From Escherichia coli (GTDB lineage: Bacteria > Pseudomonadota > Gammaproteobacteria > Enterobacterales > Enterobacteriaceae): DNA of 64,000 nucleotides. This document shows, piece by piece, positions 23,879 through 34,449 of this stretch. The notes beneath the pieces were generated by a model. The model saw nothing but the letters and a program-made list of their open reading frames with translations. It did no database searches and was not told the origin of the DNA. The stretch is taken from the NCBI RefSeq assembly GCF_024298765.1, contig NZ_CP101210.1; one strand, 5' to 3'. The position numbers were made by a program, and so were the translations under genes. How positions within the stretch are numbered: position 1 is the stretch's first letter; each line of letters starts with the position of its first letter.

Positions 23879-24554
23879 TAAAAAAGTCCGTCTTCTGCTT
23901 ACCTGTTTATTTTTCTATCGCTAAGAAAACATAATTAATATTATTTTTATGTGAGCTTATGCACAAAAATAACAAAGTATCTTATCTTCTGGTAGAGATA
24001 CAGGATACAGTTTGTAGGAGCTTTCTTTTTTTGAACAATGATTTGCAGGACAGTTATGCCAACCTAGCAGAATCAGTATCACAACAATAAATGACAGATC
24101 ATACCTGAAATTTGAATTAACAGGCATCATGAATGTCAATAGTCTAAGCGGTTACTACTTACATCGCTTGCATAAATACTAAACACTGACTAGAAAAGTA
24201 TTGGATAACCCCGTCACTAAAAGTAACACTTCGGTTATTTGCTCGGAATGTATCAACGCCAAGATTGTTAGCCGTTACGCCTTATATCACTGGCGCTGAC
24301 AAATGTTTCTTTTCTAATTTACTGAACCGGCGCAGACTTACAGAAAAACACTCCGGCACCGGTGTAATGCCAGTTATAAACAATGTGAATGGAATGACGA
24401 ATCAGTCAGGAAAGAGCTACAATCTGCTGGCTGACCGGAGAGGGTCAGCAGGAAGATGAACGGTAATGTCGCCAGCACCAGGGGCAGGGCCGGGTTCCAC
24501 AATACCAGCGCCGGCATTTTGCACATTGCCAGCGTACCGGCATCACAACACGTT

Positions 24555-24791
24555 TCATGCAGCTGCTCCTCGTGATTCCTCAATTCGCTGCTGCATCCAC
24601 TGCTCCACTTCACTTTTGTACCAGCGGCTGCTGCGGCCCAGCTTGATGGGTTTCGGGAAATGGCCTTCACTGATCAGCTTGTAAAACCATTTATCTGTCA
24701 TACCGGTGAAACTGGTGATGTAGTTCATGTCGATCAGGGGATCGTCGGCACGCAGCAACACGCAGTCGTGGCCTGTCATTGAGGTCAACAT
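24555..24791 (-). CDS. alpA: AlpA-family phage/island transcriptional regulator
   Basis: 78-aa ORF with the AlpA-type HTH signature ...ISEGHFPKPIKLGRSSRWYKSEVEQW. Confidence 0.75.
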   Translation of the reverse strand: MLTSMTGHDCVLLRADDPLIDMNYITSFTGMTDKWFYKLISEGHFPKPIKLGRSSRWYKSEVEQWMQQRIEESRGAAA

Positions 24792-24859
24792 GGTCAGAAT
24801 ATCCTCTGTGAGATTTATGAAGGTTGTGCGAATGCGGGGAAAGGTGCTGAGCCGTATTC

Positions 24860-25567
24860 TCAGAACGGTCCTGCAGATCCGGGATAGCCGGGATTACCGG
24901 CGAGGCAACGGGCTTCCGGATCGCACACACCACGACGATCGCGGGCGAAATCACTGAACGCCCAGATCAAATCTTTGAGGATGTCTTCGCAGTCCGGTGA
25001 ACGACTGTCCAGCACCACATCCCGGGTTATCTGTTTCTGGTACGGTGCCGCTTCCCCCGGTGACGCGAAGCCCAGTACGTTGCTCCAGGCATCCAGAATC
25101 AGCCGGTCCAGTTCGGGGCCGTCGAAATACTCCTGTCTGACGCACAGCACCACGTGGTATTCCGGCTTTTCCGGATGACGGGTCAGGAGCCAGCAAAGGT
25201 CGCGTCCGGGTTTCGCATTCATCAGCGCACTGACGGTTTCGATAAAATCCATACCAAACCAGGTCTGTCTGCTGTTGAAGGCGTTGTCATGTTCCCACGG
25301 CAGACGAAGCAGGATCCGCCGTATCCGTGAGCCGGACTGCTCACGCAGCGCACGCTCAAGGACGCCGATGACTTTGTTCTGATAAGATGGCCAGAAGGGT
25401 GCCAGGCTATAGTCGAAATAAGGAATAGCATTCATAAGATATGTTCCGTTATGCGCAGCCCACAATGCGTCCTGCCCGTGAATGAGCTGACGTGTTATGG
25501 CTTGCGGATGAGATTGATGGAATAAGTGAAGAACTGAAGCAGAACGGGAAGATAAGGGACAGAACAC
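24860..25567 (-). CDS. Inovirus Gp2-family (YfjJ/YagK-like) protein, paralogue 1; start uncertain
   Basis: Similarity to the two other paralogues in the window; track start is GTG, first in-frame ATG is at 25435 (MNAIPYFDYS...). Confidence 0.55.
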   Translation of the reverse strand: MFCPLSSRSASVLHLFHQSHPQAITRQLIHGQDALWAAHNGTYLMNAIPYFDYSLAPFWPSYQNKVIGVLERALREQSGSRIRRILLRLPWEHDNAFNSRQTWFGMDFIETVSALMNAKPGRDLCWLLTRHPEKPEYHVVLCVRQEYFDGPELDRLILDAWSNVLGFASPGEAAPYQKQITRDVVLDSRSPDCEDILKDLIWAFSDFARDRRGVCDPEARCLAGNPGYPGSAGPF

Positions 25568-25681
25568 CGGATTCAGGTTCAGGATGAATGATCTCCGTTG
25601 ACTTCAGTTCACATCATTAATCAATGCGGTAAGTTTTTACCGACGGAGTGTTTCCAGGAGCGGAGGCTCAGGCCTTAAGCT

Positions 25682-26248
25682 TCAGAAGTGAGGCTTACGA
25701 GGACGCCCTGCAGCAGGACGTTCAGGAACTTCATTGCAGCCGTAGGCACACAGCCCGTCTTTTTGTTCTTCTTTCGCCAGATAATGCAGGGCACCGCGAA
25801 TATTATCGATGCTTTCAGGATCGTTGTGGCGCACAGGAATGTTGATGTTGTATGCATAATGCGGCTGATATGTACAGCGGTGCGCCGAACCACAGTTATA
25901 CGTAATTGCCTGCCAGCATTCCGCTATCCGCTCCGCAAAGGGATATATTTTTTTAACCCTCTGACGATCGATCCAGAAAACGACATGCGCATGAAAACCA
26001 TGATCAGCCGTCCATTCAATCACCCAGAAGAAACCAACGATATTTTCAAATTGTTCCACCTGCTCCAGCAGCATACGCAACTGTAATTCAAGCCAGCGAT
26101 GATCAGGTTGTAAGAAATCGGGCGTATCTTTCCTGTAGAAGAAATCCATCCGTAAGGCCCGCAGGCAGGAATAGCGTGCCATCATTTGATTGATGTGATT
26201 GTCAAGTAAAGCGGTAAAAAACCAGTTTGGTGTGTAAGATTTAGGCAT
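25682..26248 (-). CDS. Inovirus Gp2-family (YfjJ/YagK-like) protein, paralogue 2
   Basis: 188-aa ORF with family-typical core (...GFFWVIEWTADHGFHAHVVFW...); tandem with paralogue 1 downstream of alpA. Confidence 0.6.
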   Translation of the reverse strand: MPKSYTPNWFFTALLDNHINQMMARYSCLRALRMDFFYRKDTPDFLQPDHRWLELQLRMLLEQVEQFENIVGFFWVIEWTADHGFHAHVVFWIDRQRVKKIYPFAERIAECWQAITYNCGSAHRCTYQPHYAYNINIPVRHNDPESIDNIRGALHYLAKEEQKDGLCAYGCNEVPERPAAGRPRKPHF

Positions 26249-27665
26249 GTTGATGACTCCTGAAAGTTAATGATGTTTTAAGCTCTGTGAGCGAATTAAT
26301 GCTTTCGCTCATAATCAGATCTAAAACGGTAATAACTTACAGATGGTATTTATCAGGCATGCTGTAACAGAATGGATACGACGGATTATTAACGACACAC
26401 AGCGTTGTGCTGAAGGGTATGAGTTATCTGATGGCATTGTCTATAGAGATGAGATAAACGAGGTGCGAAGAAAATACAGATTCAATACAACACAGTGAAA
26501 TACAGAAAAATACGAACTGTAATCCCGCTGCCAGGCGGTTAGGAAACATATTACAACTATAAGCTCATGATTTGTAAATTTGCTCTCAGTGAGTCTGAAA
26601 AAACGTTTATAAGGTCACCACAATAAACTCACACGCGCTTATTCAATCTGTTTTCCAGGATATGAACGTTAACGACACACGATAGCATAAGACAACATAC
26701 AATGGATGAATAATTTTCACCCAGTACCTTAAACAATACAACCGGCAACAAATATAATCAGAAATTCACTCTGTTAATTCTGTTGTTTATCCTGCGCTGT
26801 TAAACATGACGGAATCATGGATACCTTATCAAAGAGTAAACATTCAGTTAATCTGTGATGACAGAGAAATTGTTTCCAACCAGAATAGTTAAAACACTTC
26901 AGATAAACAATCATTGTTAAGCAAATACAGTTCATGATGGATAAGATTAAAATCAATTGCTGTTTCACTGAAAATGAGAACAGATGGATATCAGCAATAG
27001 CGTAGTAGAGAATAACTTATCCGAACATCATATGAGTTACAGTAATTATGATTGAGGGGGATGGAGTGGATACGATAACAAGAGTAAATAAAGACAGAGT
27101 AAAAGTAAAGGGCAAGTGTAATAATAGTAATAAACCTAAATTAAAATTATCCATGTTTGATGTAAAAATAATAATATACTGACAACCATGAAGGTAAGAA
27201 AAAGAGAGTGCAGGTATCAGGAAGATCTCAGGATATGAAGATTCCCACAGCACAGATTTAAAATTAGTCGAATATAATAAATTTAAAAACCTTAATTAAA
27301 ATGTAATCTCATCCATGGTTAACATGCTCCTGAAAAGGAAAGTTACAAATACCGTATGCTACCAACTAATTACAACAATGATATATGTACATTCAGTAAG
27401 AATACAGATAAAATATTAATACCAACTTCCAGTATCAAGATCGTATCGCGAACTTCAGATGCGCTATGAGGCAGTTCAATTTTTAACTTTCGTTTTCCTC
27501 TTCCTCCCTGGCTTCATATGCATAAGCGACTTGAAAGACCCGATGATAGTTACAATTTCAGGTTGTGGCATGACGATCAATTTGTAACTGAAACAATGAA
27601 CGGTAACGCTGCCATATAAACATCAAAATGCGAGCATTACAGCGACATTGAACCGATTAGATGTA

Positions 27666-28421
27666 TCACTCATAATCAGAACAAGATGATGTATCCTGAG
27701 ATATAAGAAAATCATCAAGAGAACCTCCGGCTTTTATTGCTTCTGCAATAACATTAGGCCGACGACCTTGTCCACTCCAGTACATTGTTTGACCGTTATA
27801 CTCATATCTGTATTTATGCCCTCCTGACACACTTTTTCTGCCTGCCTGTAATTTTTTGCCAAATTCACGTTCGTCGATCATGGTAATGATATAGCGACGC
27901 ATTTCACCCATTCTGAGCTCAATGGCGTCCATCCCAATGAGCTCACCGGTCTTTACCAGACGGTAGTGCTTTGGCCGGTGGGGTTTGGCGGTTCGCTTTT
28001 TGACAAGCAGAGCCTTACCCCGCGAGCTCAGACGTACTGGTACCATCCGCATTTTATCGTGTGCGGTGGCGATCATTCTGCCGATGGTGGAAACACTCGG
28101 GCAGGTCAGATGGCGCTGTGCGCACCAGGGCTTCAGGCGAACAAAAATCTGCTCTTTACCGAGGTTTGGCAGCTCTGTCCTGAGGCGTCGAATCTCTTTC
28201 AGCACATCGGGATGCCAGTGCTTTTTTCGTCGCACCAGAGGTGCCTTACTGTGCGGGATTAGCCCCTCAGGTCCTCCCTTGTTCAGTAACTGACGCCACC
28301 AGTAAAGCGTGCGGCAGGACACGCCAAAGGCTTCAGAAGCCGCAGAAATACCGTGTTTATCCCAGAAGTGCAGAGCCTTCATTCTCATTGTTGCTATATC
28401 AGCCATCACTGAAAGCCTCAA
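27666..28421 (-). mobile_element. IS transposase remnant (IS3/IS481-like N-terminal HTH, truncated catalytic core)
   Basis: N-terminal MKALHFWDKHGISAASEAFGVSCRTLYWWRQLL typical of IS transposase HTH; DDE core begins then is lost to an unrelated C-terminus; track start is TTG, ATG at 28406; no inverted repeats identified. Confidence 0.5.
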
Positions 28422-28899
28422 CGCATAATCGGCCGTTTAGGATAGCCAACCATCAGATGCTGCATTTGCATAGTGCAATCTCCCCTTACTTATCCGGAGG
28501 CAATTGCAATATCTCTGTGAACTTACACACAGGTATAATCAATAAGGGCGTACGGAGATTGCCCGTTATTGCTGCAGGATCGGCAGACTGGTTCCCGTCC
28601 TTGCGCATATAACTGTACAACCACAGAGAAAAGCATCAATGCACGCTTTATGTTGCGTCAGGGCAGCGAACGACTCCTTTTGTTGACGACACATATCACC
28701 TTCTGTACTGCCAATTATGGCATTCAGCGTCTCCCCGAGTTTTAAGCTCCTGCTCTTACGAACCAGCGACAAGCAATAAATAACTATGGCAATGAATCTA
28801 ATAACAGCATAAATATGAGACTCATCGATACTCATCGTGATTAGTATAATCGGGGCAGAATTATATTCACTGTCTGATTTATTATTGAGTTAAATATAA

Positions 28900-29352
28900 T
28901 TAAAGTGTTCTCAAAAGTCTGGCTGGATTACCGGCATACACGCCTTTTACCAGCACGGGCTTTGTAACCACACTACCAGCACCAATCACTGCTCCACTGC
29001 AAATTTCTGTGGTTAAAATGGTCGCTCCGCTACCCACTGTTACAGTGTTACCTAATACGATGCGTATCCAGCTTTCTGCAGAGGCATCGGGACCACCACA
29101 CTTAAAAAGATCATTAGCAAAAGTTACGCCATGACCGATGAAACAGCCATCACCTAAAATGACGTTCTCACAGATGAAACTGTGGGACTGAATTCGGCTC
29201 CGGTTGCCAATGATACATCCCTTCTGTATTTCCACAAAGGGACCGATAAAAACATCATCCCCCAGTTCACATTCATAGAGGTTTACTGGCATGACGACTT
29301 TCACATTTTCACCAAATTTCACATCACGAATGCGGCTGTCAATAACGTTCAT
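28900..29352 (-). CDS. Hexapeptide-repeat (left-handed beta-helix) acetyltransferase
   Basis: 150-aa ORF with repeated [LIV]G-x4 hexapeptide pattern (IGNRSRIQSHSFICENVILGDGCFIGHGVTF...); ATG start. Confidence 0.75.
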   Translation of the reverse strand: MNVIDSRIRDVKFGENVKVVMPVNLYECELGDDVFIGPFVEIQKGCIIGNRSRIQSHSFICENVILGDGCFIGHGVTFANDLFKCGGPDASAESWIRIVLGNTVTVGSGATILTTEICSGAVIGAGSVVTKPVLVKGVYAGNPARLLRTL

Positions 29353-29861
29353 ATCCGTTGTATCCTCCCTCAGGATGATTCTTATCAGAACATTTCACCT
29401 GTCAGAATATTCCCGGTAATGTGATACAAGAGCCAGTCTCACCGGGTACCATGTGTTATTGCTCGTATCCTTTTGCCCGTTACGAGTGTACAACCGGTTT
29501 TATATTTTGCAATCCAGGCCTGTTACACCAGAGCATCCTCTCACTGCCCCCTCACTGGTCAATCCGGGATTCAAAGTCATCCTCCAGCACTAAACCCCAT
29601 ACCAGTCCTGAACCTTCCCTCGCCAGCAGCCAGACTCCTACTGTTCACCACAATCCTCTTCCGTGAATGGCCGTAAGTGCGCAGCACCAAAATAAATCGG
29701 TACTTCCGATGACAGACAGTGAAAGCGTCAGAGAAATATGAACATGAGAATGGAAGCAGATACATGACTTCAGGACGACTTTTTCAGAAAACGAGCTAAG
29801 GGCGTCAGCCAACGACCTTACCGTGGTATACGCTCAGGCGCCGGATGCCGTTTTACCCGGT

Positions 29862-30593
29862 TCACCTGCCATCCAGCAAACGCCCCGGCCCACGACTGCA
29901 ACCATAATTACGTTGCCCGGAACCGTCATGCTGCTTCGTCTCATATTTCACGAGATAACTGGCTCTGTTCCGGGCTTTCTGCATCGCTTCCACATCACCA
30001 CGCTTGATCCAGAGAACAGCGGCTTCACCAGACTTTTTGTCTGAAGCCTTCCAGGTATCAGAACATCCACCCGACAAAGGCGTGTCATCGGAAGAAGGGC
30101 GAACATCAGACGATGCTGGTTTACGGGAAGGCGTCCACCTGGAAAAATGGACCAGGCCATCGCCTTGCCAGGGCTCAAGATGCAGGGCGCTGCACCATGC
30201 CTCCTGGATCATCGTCGCCAGCGAAGACGGTTCGCTGAAATCCCCGAGCGAGCACCAGGTATCTTTGTTGAGCAGTAATATCACGTGATAATGTTTCCTG
30301 CCATACATCTTGCCGAACTCCCGGCACCAGAAATAACCCAGGCTGGTTGCATGCACACGCTGATTGGCACATCTTTTTTTCCGCTGGTAAGCCTGAATTT
30401 TGGCTTTCAGGGATGCAAAAAAACGAGAAATCACCGCTGAATCCGGATCGGGATCCATGATGGTGACAGGCATATACTCAGGGAAACGTAAATCCACCCG
30501 GATTAACGAGACGGCACGGTGCTGCGCCAGGGCACTGTCGAGAAGGCTGTCAAAACGGGATAACCAGTAAGCATTGTGTATTGGTTGATTCAT
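29862..30593 (-). CDS. Inovirus Gp2-family (YfjJ/YagK-like) protein, paralogue 3
   Basis: 243-aa ORF, ATG start, conserved HYHVILLLNKD segment; conserved leader motif immediately upstream (30601-30648). Confidence 0.7.
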   Translation of the reverse strand: MNQPIHNAYWLSRFDSLLDSALAQHRAVSLIRVDLRFPEYMPVTIMDPDPDSAVISRFFASLKAKIQAYQRKKRCANQRVHATSLGYFWCREFGKMYGRKHYHVILLLNKDTWCSLGDFSEPSSLATMIQEAWCSALHLEPWQGDGLVHFSRWTPSRKPASSDVRPSSDDTPLSGGCSDTWKASDKKSGEAAVLWIKRGDVEAMQKARNRASYLVKYETKQHDGSGQRNYGCSRGPGRLLDGR

Positions 30594-30984
30594 GATGAGA
30601 GATCTCCGTTGATTTGGATTGACTTCACATCATTAATCAACGCAGTAAAACTTTACGGCATCCGACATTGAGCAATACTACAACTCTCTGATTAAGAGTG
30701 ATTGAAACGGAACAAACCATCCCGGAACGAAAAGATAATCCTGCACACAGCAGCAAAATACGCAACAACAGCATGAATGGATTTAAAAACGACATGGACG
30801 ACGAGAAAAGTCTGAAGGGAAAAGGAGCCACAGAACATTCGAACAAAACACCAGAAATGCAACCAGAACGCTTCCTGGCAATGCAAATCAACAACAACGC
30901 CAAAACCTACAACTTAATCACACAACTCAATCACGGATGCGAATGACACGCTTAAAACCTGTTTACAGATAACGCCGTAACACG

Positions 30985-31026
30985 ATCATCACCATCACCA
31001 TCACCATCACCATCACCATCACCATC
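30985..31026. repeat. Hexanucleotide simple-sequence repeat (ACCATC)x6 with flanking ATC
   Basis: Read directly: gatcatc(accatc)6ag; no start codon in the poly-His frame (a TAA lies immediately upstream). Confidence 0.85.
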
Positions 31027-31461
31027 AGAATCGATTTTCTCATCCCGAAAATGTTACGTTTCACTACGCACCATAAAAACGATTAACCATCGATAACGTA
31101 AATCTCATCTGAATCAAAACACCAAAACCGTTCATCACACTTTCGCAATGCAAGAAGAAACCTCATGACAAAAAGAATGACCTTACACGGAAAAGAAAAA
31201 CGTCAGGAATCGTTAATGCCTCAATCTGATTGTTATCAAAACATCCAGAAAGTCGTTTAACAGAATCGTCGTAAGCACATCGAAAAGAACGTCAGATTAC
31301 TTCAGGAAAGTTCGGGTTGATTTAGCGTAAAGATACTTTTCTCAAGCTAACGTCGAAACTCGAAATCTCAGGAAAGGTTAAACGTAACATCAGTAAAATC
31401 GAATAGCAGATTGATTGCTTAAACAGAAAGGTTTTACAGCAGCATTAAACTGATTTAGTTA

Positions 31462-31497
31462 ACGTAAAGATTTACTAAACGTAAAGATTTACTAAAC
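31462..31497. repeat. Tandem duplication of a 17-bp unit (cgtaaagatttactaaa)
   Basis: Read directly in the ORF-poor segment; about 100 bp downstream are three spaced copies of acgtgtat(a) (near 31572, 31606, 31636). Confidence 0.7.
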
Positions 31498-32593
31498 TGG
31501 ATGTGTATCAGATCAAACAATGTGTACAGCAATGCTTAATGAAAATACTTGTAGAATTGTTTATGAGAAAGCGTGTATAACACTTACTGAAATGCTTAGT
31601 TAAATACGTGTATGTTTGGTAAAACACTTAAGTAAAATACGTGTATAGTACCATTCCCGACATTCTCAACATCTTCAGACATCCATGCAGACTGAGTGTT
31701 GATTTCAGTTTTTCACGGCCAGCATGGATCTTTACTGTTTAAAAAACATACAGATTTACTCTGAAATTATTTACCCAGGCCTCCCTGAAAAGACCATCCG
31801 GAGCATCCCGTTCGTCAGCTTCCATGTTGTCTTTTACCCCGGAAAGTGATCGCATTTTCCAGCCAGAATGACAGCCATACTGATTATGACGTCTCTCCGG
31901 CCCCTTCACATATAACATTCATGTCAGTCATTTCTTACTGCCTCACTCACCGGAATTCTCCATGCCGGATGAAGCAATTGTTCTGAACTGAGCAGAAGCA
32001 TAACAGCACACAAGGAAACGACTGTGCTATAGATCCTGGAATCAGGATCTTAATGTCAGGAAAACAATGACGACCGGGGATAACCAACAACAACCTGAGT
32101 ACAGAAGAAAGCTTTCCCGCGCACGCCATCATCTTATGTAAGAGGATATGATGCCACCCCCACCTCAGAAGAACCGTCTCCGGGAGAACTTCACTGCATC
32201 CAAAATCCTTTTGCTGAGTTCTCATTCCCCATCATGGCAGCTACAGACATGCCCTGACAGAGCGTATGCGCATTGAGAGAAATAACCATAAATGATGAGA
32301 AGACACTCTATATAACGACAGCATGTTGAGGCATCAAAAATATTCATATAAATATTTTAAGAAAATTTTTTATTGCAAACTACAGGAAATAACATGATGT
32401 CAATATAATTTTTTAAAAAACGTGATATTAATCACATTGTAATTTTCTGTGTTTTTATGTAAATCAGAGAAAAGAGTCCATGAACGTTATTGCATTTTTT
32501 CTGATGTATGGATAAAAGGGGATTCAGGCGAAATTTACTGACAGAGGTGATAAGAGGGGGGTTAAAGAGTTCTATAGAGTTGGTTGTGCATTT

Positions 32594-33463
32594 ATGCCCA
32601 GGGAGTTCATGTCTGTGCATTCACCAGATGAATCTGATCATGTTTTTAGTCGGATGGAATATGAATATTACCGACATAACGATAAATCACCTTCTGTTAA
32701 TGCTGATAATGCAGGCAGAGACGTTGTTCCGGAGTGGGTGCAAAAAGACCCTGTAGCCGCATTCTGGGTATGGATGTTTATATATCATGTTCCTGACAGT
32801 ATTGTCCGACTCTCAGGTGAGCAATATGCAGATTACGGAATTTCCTGTCTGTATGCCAGACTGTTTGCCACAGAAGCAGCTCCAGCTAATCATCAGGCAA
32901 GGATTCGTGTGACGAGAAAATGGCTACAGGAGCTTATAAGGCTAACCGGGACAGAAAATGTATCTGACTTCTTGTATGTCGTTCATTTTTTATGGTCATA
33001 TGCTGAAAAAGTGAACCCCATGACATGGCTTGGTTCCCGGCGGATACATATCAAATGGGCATGGGCGTATCTGCAAAAACATTGCACTGACGAAGAACGT
33101 CACTGTCCTGATATTTCAGAATTTAAAGCTTCAGGGGAGTCACGTCTGTTCATAATAGCTTATGTGCGCCGTGTCTTCATGAAAATCTATTCTGTCGGTA
33201 CTGAACCTCAAAAGTTAAAAGAATTAGTTTATCAGCAGAATGATTTTCTCAGGCGCATGAAGTGCTCATACCAGAAAATGTTCCGGTATGAGAAAACCGA
33301 TTCCCGGGTACAGATAAGTGCCCTGATTTCTCCGGAAGCCAGGAATGCACTCCGGAAAATGGCAAAAAAGAATAATCTGACGCAGGCTGAAATCCTGGAT
33401 AAACTCATCTTATCAGCTGATCGTCTGTTTATGCAGAAAACAGCAGGGGATTATTCCCGTTAA
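32594..33463 (+). CDS. Uncharacterised protein with C-terminal ribbon-helix-helix-like segment
   Basis: 289-aa ORF with ATG start; C-terminal VQISALISPEARNALRKMAKKNNLTQAEILDKLIL fits a beta-strand/helix/helix (CopG/Arc-like) pattern; no other family recognised. Confidence 0.5.
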   Translation: MPREFMSVHSPDESDHVFSRMEYEYYRHNDKSPSVNADNAGRDVVPEWVQKDPVAAFWVWMFIYHVPDSIVRLSGEQYADYGISCLYARLFATEAAPANHQARIRVTRKWLQELIRLTGTENVSDFLYVVHFLWSYAEKVNPMTWLGSRRIHIKWAWAYLQKHCTDEERHCPDISEFKASGESRLFIIAYVRRVFMKIYSVGTEPQKLKELVYQQNDFLRRMKCSYQKMFRYEKTDSRVQISALISPEARNALRKMAKKNNLTQAEILDKLILSADRLFMQKTAGDYSR

Positions 33464-34449
33464 TGAGTTCCACCAGAACCGTTTTTCTTTTTGCTGCTGT
33501 TTTTGCGTTTATGCTGTTCGTACCTTTCTTTTGACGTACAAAGGAATCTTCCATAAACATTGCGGATATATGAGTTGATATACTCCAGCATTCTCTCTTT
33601 TCGTGATTTCCCTTTTTCCTTCGAATCTTCACTTTGAACATTAATGTCCATCAGTTCTTTTATAAACTTATCCAGATTTTCCATGTCATAAAGCAGCATG
33701 AAAAACATCACATTTCCCAGTGATTCCAGTAACTGAGATTCAACCCAGTCCCCATATTTTCTGAAACTTAGCCCTGTTAAAAACTGTTCAAACATTACCC
33801 CTGATACAAAAAGAGATTTTAATCCCAGTCGCTTATATTCCTGGTAAAAAAGTTCAAACGTCGGGGATTCTGAACGGCAAATAAACGAAGACAGCGCCCA
33901 TGGATCAAAATCTGTAACACGCCTCCCCTCCCACACTTCCTGCCGTGTCAGCGGCGGTTCAGCAAACCAGGCGTCCAGCTCAGCCGAATCGCTGTCCCTG
34001 CTCAAAACCTTATACAAACTGCCCGTGAACGGTTGAGGCGGATTTTTGGTTGCTTCATCTTCTGATTGTCTGGATTGTCTGGATTGTCTGGATTGTCTGG
34101 ATTGTCTGAATCCGTCCACTTTTCTCCGGATATTACGCGGGATCAGCATAAAAGGCGGGACATTAAGTGATAAACGTTTACCCGTCATGCGATACCATTG
34201 CCCCACCTCAACCTTAATCCGTGTATCTGACTTTAGCTCAAGTGCCATTATGTTAAGCAGGTACAGATAACGCACCGTATAACAGTCAAAATGTTTCTCC
34301 GGATCAAACGGCTCTGACCGTTCTCTGCACACGAGTCCGCTGCGCTTCAGTATTCGCTGGGTATCTTTCCAGGCCTTACACTGAAGAATGGTGGTAACTC
34401 TGGCCTTATTAGCAATCTCACGCAGCGCATCACTTTGTTGTGCCGTCAT
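33460..34449 (-). CDS. Uncharacterised protein with internal (RQS)5 repeat
   Basis: 329-aa ORF, ATG start preceded by GGGAGGTGAG Shine-Dalgarno; contains an in-frame 9-bp tandem repeat (34062-34106); stop overlaps the stop of the convergent 32594 gene (TTAA). Confidence 0.55.
   Translation of the reverse strand: MTAQQSDALREIANKARVTTILQCKAWKDTQRILKRSGLVCRERSEPFDPEKHFDCYTVRYLYLLNIMALELKSDTRIKVEVGQWYRMTGKRLSLNVPPFMLIPRNIRRKVDGFRQSRQSRQSRQSRQSEDEATKNPPQPFTGSLYKVLSRDSDSAELDAWFAEPPLTRQEVWEGRRVTDFDPWALSSFICRSESPTFELFYQEYKRLGLKSLFVSGVMFEQFLTGLSFRKYGDWVESQLLESLGNVMFFMLLYDMENLDKFIKELMDINVQSEDSKEKGKSRKERMLEYINSYIRNVYGRFLCTSKERYEQHKRKNSSKKKNGSGGTH

Follow-up and report, generated by a model that had tools for sequence, protein, structure and literature searches.

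A conserved and repeated upstream element associated with Gp2-family (HUH-fold) genes in CP4-57-like islands of Escherichia coli

In the transposase mRNAs of the insertion sequences IS10 and IS50, translation is blocked by fold-back inhibition, an upstream sequence pairing with the ribosome-binding site and the start codon. Another type of cis-acting sequence is found at the origins used by HUH Rep proteins, which include the Rep-binding element and nick-site hairpin of parvoviruses (AAV), the dso of rolling-circle replicons, and the intergenic origin of f1, located just upstream of gene II. In Pseudomonas aeruginosa, the AlpA binding element, or ABE (GGGACG-N5-GGTA), is positioned between mapped -35 and -10 elements (PMC7969949). 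Islands of Pseudomonas which are integrated at the tmRNA gene have an inovirus Gp2-like gene beside alpA among their conserved core genes (bioRxiv 10.1101/2024.08.29.610337). Genes of the YagK/YfjJ family ("inovirus Gp2 family") belong to the core of genomic islands that are very common in Enterobacterales and Pseudomonas, and alpA is their usual partner; our search of the literature returned no functional study of YagK or YfjJ.

The DNA analysed here, a stretch of 64,000 nt which we refer to as the window, is part of a CP4-57-like genomic island of E. coli. In the annotation of strain GPEC1031, one flank carries the microcin H47 genes mchB, mchI, and mchS3, while the other carries the usual block of CP4-57/CP4-44-type islands (YeeP-like GTPase, DUF932, antirestriction protein, RadC, CbeA/CbtA). 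Chromosomes of extra-intestinal strains from birds and humans match the region around the element described below with 99.9% identity. All genes that matter for this description are on the minus strand. One of these genes (29862-30593) codes for a 243-aa protein of the YagK_YfjJ_C / REP_ORF2-G2P family (Pfam, E 2.5e-35), which has an HUH nickase-type fold. In an alignment of 17 family members, which extends to Providencia, Morganellaceae, Brenneria, and YfjJ/YagK from strain K-12, the HUH histidines are invariant and a Tyr-x-x-Lys-x-x-x-Lys motif is nearly so. The 243-aa protein retains both the HUH and the Tyr motif, by which it classifies as an HUH endonuclease. No relative of it was found on viral contigs; two viral loci have relatives of the 191-aa protein introduced below.

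The stretch of about 75 bases before this Gp2-like gene is a real and strongly conserved element. A preliminary description had placed a motif at 30601-30648, directly before the start codon of the 243-aa gene, and had reported the same motif at 25590-25632. Both statements were confirmed: the ATG of the Pfam-assigned gene is at 30593, and the two sites were matched to each other by a repeat finder, by alignment, by a shared 17-mer, and by an nhmmer profile. The interval proved to be too narrow, however. The full unit at this site (copy 2, type A) covers 30584-30658, and 30601-30648 is merely its middle. The block common to both sites corresponds to 30594-30658 in copy 2 and to ~25576-25649 in copy 1 (type B); copy 2 has, in addition, a 3' inverted-repeat arm which reaches into the CDS, to 30584. 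The alignment of the two copies shows ~79% identity and one 5-nt indel, because of which the repeat finder paired them in two registers (D5 and D6, with 79% and 77% identity).

The element has four parts: a 16-bp palindrome, termed P1 (CCGTAAAGTTTTACTG), a 17-nt core (TTGATTAATGATGTGAA), the block TCAACGGAGATC with the Shine-Dalgarno sequence, and the ATG. On the gene strand, copy 2 reads CCGTAAAGTTTTACTGCGTTGATTAATGATGTGAAGTCAATCCAAATCAACGGAGATCTCTCATC followed by ATG or, split into parts, CCGTAAAGTTTTACTG-CGT-TGATTAATGATGTGAA-GTCAATCCAAA-TCAACGGAGATC-TCTCATC-ATG. P1 (30643-30658) has GTAA-N4-TTAC at its center and is a putative protein-binding site, as judged from its copy number in the window, its likeness to iterons, and a match in Providencia. 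The invariant core GTTGATTAATGATGTGAA (30624-30641), recognised by the exact 17-mer in common with copy 1, is the 5' arm of an inverted repeat. The TCAACGGAGATC block (30601-30612) contains GGAG, the Shine-Dalgarno sequence of the 243-aa gene at a distance of 10 nt from its ATG, as well as a GATC site, and is found in the loop of the predicted hairpin. The 3' arm TCTCATCATGAATCAAC (30584-30600) covers the ATG (30591-30593) and codons 2-4.

Copy 1 (25576-25649), delimited by alignment and profile, consists of ACTCCGT, P1 in the form CGGTAAAAACTTACCG (25627-25642), the core (25608-25625), TCAACGGAGATC (25590-25601), and a relic start with CTG for ATG. In parts, its gene strand reads CGGTAAAAACTTACCG-CAT-TGATTAATGATGTGAA-CTGAAG-TCAACGGAGATC-ATTCATC-CTG. 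The 17-mer TTGATTAATGATGTGAA and the 12-mer TCAACGGAGATC each have exactly two minus-strand occurrences in the window, namely at these two sites. Shuffled sequences yielded ~0.27 matches for the 17-mer (three mismatches allowed) and ~0.25 for the 12-mer (one allowed), and their sharing is not expected by chance. The nhmmer profile, which was built from nine variants, retrieved exactly the same two sites from the window (E 7e-24 and 2e-19). A degenerate third version (type C, 26260-26342) is present before a 188-aa YagK-like gene (25682-26248; annotation, Pfam) and was recognised by its sequence and an inverted repeat. It has the P1-like sequence CTGTAAGTTATTACCG and an inverted TTAATGATGT, which is the sole other copy of that 10-mer in the window.

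The view that the motif precedes Gp2-family genes applies to copy 2, which is found at a YagK_YfjJ_C gene, but not in this form to copy 1. Rather than being at the start of an annotated Gp2-type gene, copy 1 is located downstream of the annotated YagK-like gene, 50 nt past the stop codon of this 188-aa gene, and 155 nt ahead of the ATG of a 191-aa gene (24860-25435). Since CTG or TTA stands where copy 2 has ATG, no gene starts at copy 1. The 191-aa "hypothetical protein" did not match any Pfam, NCBIfam, or PHROG family, and its homologues are from E. coli only. Profile-profile comparison with the Gp2-family alignment (PF11726 family) resulted in an hhalign probability of 86% (E 4.9e-6, 111 columns); HYH of the family is replaced by EYH, and no catalytic Tyr motif is aligned. 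For these three reasons, we consider it to be probably a cryptic, remote, and inactive Gp2 paralogue. It is possibly an inactive, regulatory derivative of an HUH protein.

The last gene of the copy 1 unit (24555-24791) codes for an AlpA-family HTH protein (Pfam PF05930, E 2e-10). The order Gp2-type gene, motif B, 191-aa gene, AlpA gene was found in 14 of 14 distinct type-B loci, while the order in other genera (Providencia, Morganellaceae, Brenneria) is Gp2 followed by AlpA. About 1 kb downstream of the AlpA-family gene, a frameshifted pseudogene of the ProQ/FinO family was observed in two loci (L004, 4997-5505; L005, 4960-5474; type B). An RNA chaperone gene near a structured leader may be of significance or a coincidence. 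In strain KE26, motif A, the 243-aa gene, motif B, the 191-aa gene, and the AlpA gene are all within 2 kb. Compared to KE26, the window has ~4 kb inserted between motif B and a hairpin at 29790-29835 (acyltransferase, HTH and H-NS pseudogenes, 188-aa gene), with the breakpoint CTTCC|GCTCC ~20 nt before motif B. This GC-rich hairpin, GGTAAGG(G/T)CG...CGCCCTTA(C/G)C on the minus strand, is just past the stop codon of the 243-aa gene, is kept in KE26, and also occurs in L005 (2925-2955). It is terminator-like but has a poor T-run.

Sequences of the copy 2 type are carried by ~1,870 of 5,426 complete E. coli genomes, all with at least 90% identity, and the 1.7 kb around copy 2 are mostly 80-95% identical among E. 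coli genomes. Seven type-A loci show no variation in the 40 columns 30597-30636; their mean pairwise identity drops to 0.5-0.85 in the upstream sequence and is 0.83-1.0 in the CDS. Types A and B share ~80% identity over ~70 nt with flanks that cannot be aligned, and the proteins of the type A and type B units are only ~18% identical, which is at the limit of detection.

An exact-pattern scan of 100,044 species genomes produced eight matches, of which seven are due to chance (e.g., in Cedecea, in unrelated sequence). The single real match, from an Enterobacteriaceae MAG, is identical to E. coli type A and therefore does not increase the phylogenetic depth. A phage collection had no match to the motif, and a plasmid collection had only five, in records that are E. 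coli plasmids or mis-labelled. The upstream regions of yfjJ and yagK from K-12 could not be aligned to the motif and had no nhmmer match, and the motif was not found upstream of the Gp2 genes from Brenneria, Morganellaceae, and locus L019. The whole motif is restricted to E. coli-like genomes and islands. Within the libraries searched, the element is so far undescribed; it is most likely of a familiar kind. Gp2 upstream regions from Morganellaceae and Providencia (L023/L025, ~2820-2870; L021, ~2760-2840) have short direct repeats of their own (TAATTTATA, twice; TATGTGTTT, three times), so that Gp2-family genes may generally be preceded by repeat arrays, also those that lack the E. coli motif.

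The palindromic part of the element behaves more like a repeated DNA site than like an RNA feature. GTAA-N4-TTAC occurs five times in the window, compared to 0.74 expected occurrences, and none of 100 shuffles reached this number. All five sites are in upstream regions of Gp2 genes. P1 is represented once per Gp2-family gene, upstream of all three (25629, 26329, 30645). The remaining two sites are arranged in tandem with a period of 17 bp (31464-31492), within the 2 kb of non-coding DNA that precede copy 2. They belong to two P1-like iterons, ACGTAAAGATTTACTA (31454-31493, plus strand), 0.85 kb upstream of copy 2, which were detected by the repeat finder and by the pattern count; a related half-site is located at 31317-31334 or, in a narrower delimitation, 31325-31334. 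P1 of copy 2 and the iterons at 31464-31492 are identical at 13 of 16 positions. A single iteron is kept at the equivalent relative place in the type-A loci L005, L017, and L018. None of the type-B variants departs from GTAA and TTAC in the half-sites, but outer C-G pairs have been lost with no compensating change, a pattern more in keeping with a protein site than with an RNA stem.

P1 also occurs outside E. coli. The region between the Gp2 gene and alpA from Providencia contains GTAAAGTTTTACC, with 13 nt identical to P1 of type A, and this P1 is kept despite a protein identity of only ~38%. In L019, GTAAAAATATAC (P1 with one mismatch) is found ~95 nt upstream of alpA, and the distance from P1 to ATGA is 11 nt both there and in E. 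coli. It is the five copies in the window and the recurrence upstream of alpA from Providencia which make P1 look like a DNA operator. The HTH regions of AlpA hardly differ between genera that have P1 and genera that do not, and AlpA as the P1-binding protein is neither supported nor excluded. P1 does not match GGGACG-N5-GGTA, and the published ABE motif is absent from both copies.

The 2 kb between the 243-aa gene and the next called gene (30660-32590) have no convincing gene but dense repeat families, among them three to four ATACACGTATTT(T)ACTTAAG-like units (31575-31646) and a (CATCAC/CATCACCAT)n run (30987-31032). To judge from its sequence, the stretch looks like an origin-like or multi-operator region. 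RefSeq has an 82-aa "hypothetical protein" with a GTG start at 30698-30946, on the plus strand and reading away from the motif. This ORF is probably not a gene because it has no Pfam match and because conservation of the region that it overlaps is only 0.4-0.8. Four tandem 9-bp units GATTGTCTG were observed at 34064-34111, in or beside a 329-aa ORF (33460-34449).

The inverted-repeat arms of copy 2 (30625-30641 and 30584-30600) have a length of 17 nt, are 88% complementary, and enclose the Shine-Dalgarno sequence; the core is complementary to the start-codon region at 15 of 17 positions. An alternative inverted repeat, mutually exclusive with this one, combines 30604-30614 with 30635-30645 and pairs the Shine-Dalgarno sequence itself. 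When folded as RNA, the copy 2 region has an MFE of -24.1 kcal/mol (z -2.9). The predicted energy for opening positions -14 to +6 is 12.6 kcal/mol, compared to 7.3 +/- 1.8 kcal/mol when the upstream part was shuffled (3 of 100 shuffles were as high), and it is 7.5 kcal/mol in the absence of the 5' arm. Natural type-A variants have uncompensated changes within the stem. Copy 1 has a degenerate proximal arm (10 nt, 90%), and a 27-nt inverted copy of the core is found 62-77 nt downstream, inside the 155-nt spacer (25513-25539, minus strand). The pairings are 25513-25530/25608-25625 (18 nt, 72%) and 25531-25539/25602-25610 (9 nt, 100%). L005, the leader of which is very divergent, has its inverted core copy 111 nt downstream, in the same arrangement as copy 1.

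The type-B leaders keep the inverted core copy despite indels of 12 to 37 nt between the arms. RNAalifold, applied to 14 type-B leaders, showed the stems to be kept, with 96.8% of the cells paired and a covariation term of -0.33. Double changes are seen in three pairs, and the score for covariation, 0.096, compares with 0.083 in shuffles (3 of 500 as high), for sequences that are closely related. One stem pair occurs in the states C-G, U-A, and U-G, and most of the G·U-type changes are on the sense strand. Covariation support for a structured RNA leader is weak. The start of the 191-aa gene at copy 1 is not predicted to be occluded (3.2 vs. 3.9 kcal/mol). The type-C leader is strongly structured (z -3.4). 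The possibility that the ACTCCGT segment hides the Shine-Dalgarno sequence of the 191-aa gene was rejected; this pairing is present in the MFE and alifold structures, but ensemble opening energies gave no support.

Several other types of feature were searched for. At gathering score, Rfam had no match in the whole window, and in E-value mode (24000-33000) only chance matches to snoRNAs and sRNAs were returned, none of them at the motif. Sigma-70 promoters were scanned for by consensus (two hexamers, -35 and -10, 16-18 bp apart and matching at 9 or more of the 12 positions, the -10 hexamer having A as its second and T as its sixth base). No such site overlaps with 30594-30660, with 25576-25650, or with the motifs of L005, which applies to consensus promoters; an activator-dependent promoter would escape. 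A scan for intrinsic terminators (GC-rich hairpin followed by a T-run) had no terminator-like site at either copy or at the L005 motifs. Our literature search found no usable TSS maps or RNA-seq data for this locus or for strains carrying the element. A leader peptide or N-terminal extension at copy 1 was rejected: CTG or TTA is found at the position aligned with ATG, and no reading frame is kept in the type-B leaders because their lengths differ by 11, 12, 16, and 37 nt. A resemblance of TTGAT in the core to the nick sites of phiX174 and pC194 (type CTTG|ATA) was rejected, given that the two bases before GAT vary among copies (TTGAT, GTGAT, GCGAT, CTGAT).

Control of gene expression is the most likely role of the element, which recurs before two sister genes. 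We tentatively prefer the explanation, while stopping short of calling it probable, that the motif is a composite proximal cis-control region which is common to Gp2-family (HUH-fold) genes of CP4-57-like E. coli islands and which combines an operator with a start-hiding hairpin. P1, the 16-bp palindrome cGTAAAnnTTTACg, would be the DNA binding site for an island-encoded protein, with the Gp2-family protein itself or an HTH regulator as candidates; related sites are found again as iterons 0.85 kb upstream and before both paralogues. The 17-nt core would act as one arm of the inverted repeat, the other arm of which, in copy 2, would be the start codon with codons 2-4. In a transcript that comes from upstream and contains the core, the hairpin of ~-24 kcal/mol, or the alternative hairpin pairing the Shine-Dalgarno sequence, would hide the translation start, and synthesis of a potentially harmful nickase would be kept low or conditional. 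GGAG and the ATG would represent the third component.

We arrive at this composite reading because 40 nt are invariant across seven type-A loci while flanks and CDS vary, and because the element is ~80% identical between units with proteins that are ~18% identical. The operator part is suggested by the copy number of P1, the tandem sites, the fixed half-sites, and the P1 kept in Providencia and L019. The hairpin part is suggested by the inverted repeat over the ATG, the z-score of the fold (-2.9), the raised opening energy, and the persistent inverted core of type B, and also by the sense-strand G·U-type changes and the structure of type C (z -3.4). Arguments against it are that a sigma-70-like promoter was not detected by the consensus scan, that covariation is weak, that changes in the type-A stem are uncompensated, and that AlpA HTHs are nearly identical with and without P1. 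Also, the start of the 191-aa gene is not occluded, yet TCAACGGAGATC is invariant in copy 1.

Translation control alone leaves unexplained the invariance of TCAACGGAGATC in type B, where no ORF starts, and the presence of an own element variant for each HUH-fold paralogue. We therefore keep open an explanation by HUH recognition, even if we rate it as unlikely: the element would be the recognition and nicking site (ori- or oriT-like) of the HUH-fold Gp2-family protein, with P1 and the iterons as double-stranded binding sites and with an extruded DNA hairpin that is nicked in the loop TCAACGGAGATC or in the core. Such a role would fit an own variant for each of the three paralogues, the iterons upstream, an inverted repeat which is kept while its spacer varies, and a TCAACGGAGATC that is invariant in type B though it is the Shine-Dalgarno sequence of no ORF there. 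It would also fit the position of the element at mosaic breakpoints between genomes and the YfjI/DUF3987 proteins that adjoin the module in K-12, L004, and Providencia. However, the arms of type B are separated by 62-111 nt, which is large for cruciform extrusion, the likeness to CTTG|ATA-type sites fails with the variable bases before GAT, and the 191-aa paralogue beside copy 1 is devoid of catalytic motifs. Moreover, we saw no sign that CP4-57-like islands replicate or get mobilised, and the Gp2 genes of Morganellaceae, Brenneria, and K-12 have no such motif before them. In an extended form, which we hold to be similarly doubtful, the element and the upstream P1-like iterons would be the cognate binding and nicking hairpin of an uncharacterised bacterial HUH family (YagK/YfjJ). 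The islands would then carry origin or transfer sites of the rolling-circle type, one site per paralogue, and the dead 191-aa paralogue would be a site-specific regulator or competitor.

Control might also be exerted at the DNA level only, by a promoter-operator in which P1, as a site for an AlpA-family or other HTH protein, overlaps a weak -35, AATGAT in the core serves as -10, and transcription starts at ~30620; the inverted repeat would only silence read-through RNAs, as in IS10/IS50. We assign a low probability to this arrangement. The consensus scan did not find a promoter there, there is no acceptable -35 at 16-18 bp, P1 is unlike the published ABE (GGGACG-N5-GGTA), and conservation of the AlpA HTHs is just as high where genera lack P1. 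On the other hand, P1 is kept upstream of alpA in three lineages, with the 11-nt spacing to ATGA in common between E. coli and L019, AATGAT has the critical -11A and -7T (as read off the sequence), and the opening energy drops from 12.6 to 7.5 kcal/mol once the 5' arm is removed. In P. aeruginosa, AlpA binds between -35 and -10 (PMC7969949). Finally, the element might be functionless, left by common ancestry of paralogous units or by recent gene conversion between them, and kept for the Shine-Dalgarno sequence and start of copy 2. We consider this very unlikely. It is in line with the occurrence in E. coli-type islands only (one true match among 100,044 species representatives, none in phages, five plasmid records) and with the limited covariation, but conservation is above that of the adjacent CDS and far above that of the flanks. 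Also, the element persists in type B, where no gene starts, chance does not explain the copy number of P1, and Providencia keeps P1 at a protein identity of ~38%.

A conserved cis element offers an experimental handle on these island genes, as it could reveal the P1-binding protein. With it, one can ask directly whether the HUH-fold proteins of this family act as regulators, as replication initiators, or as relaxase-like nickases, and by what means the excision and regulation modules of islands stay silent. Should it turn out to be just an operator with a hairpin that blocks translation, a cryptic island gene would simply have a regulatory region of a routine type.

When compared to the described systems, the locus shares with the Pseudomonas islands the pair of Gp2 and alpA, which is also found in Providencia, Morganellaceae, and Brenneria. 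The proteins are distant, however, and that report covers genes alone, with no upstream cis element (bioRxiv 10.1101/2024.08.29.610337). As with the ABE, a short DNA site is associated with AlpA, which in P. aeruginosa controls the promoters near the site and here is represented by an AlpA-family gene in the copy 1 unit; P1 differs from it by its sequence (GTAA-N4-TTAC) and has no mapped promoter here. With the origins of HUH Rep proteins, the element has in common an adjoining gene for an HUH-fold protein that has the HUH and Tyr motifs; just upstream of this rep-like gene, sites of the binding type are repeated and an inverted repeat has a conserved loop. It differs from them in having no sequence match to known nick sites, a large spacer in type B, and a paralogue at copy 1 that looks catalytically dead; YagK/YfjJ are likened to Rep proteins by fold and motifs, nicking and replication not being known for them. 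Compared to IS10/IS50, the element adds a palindromic repeated DNA site and recurs at copy 1 without a following start codon, and no promoter is mapped here between the arms. What it shares with IS10/IS50 is an upstream arm complementary to the ribosome-binding site and start codon, placed in both cases before a gene for a DNA-cleaving enzyme of a mobile element, here a putative one.
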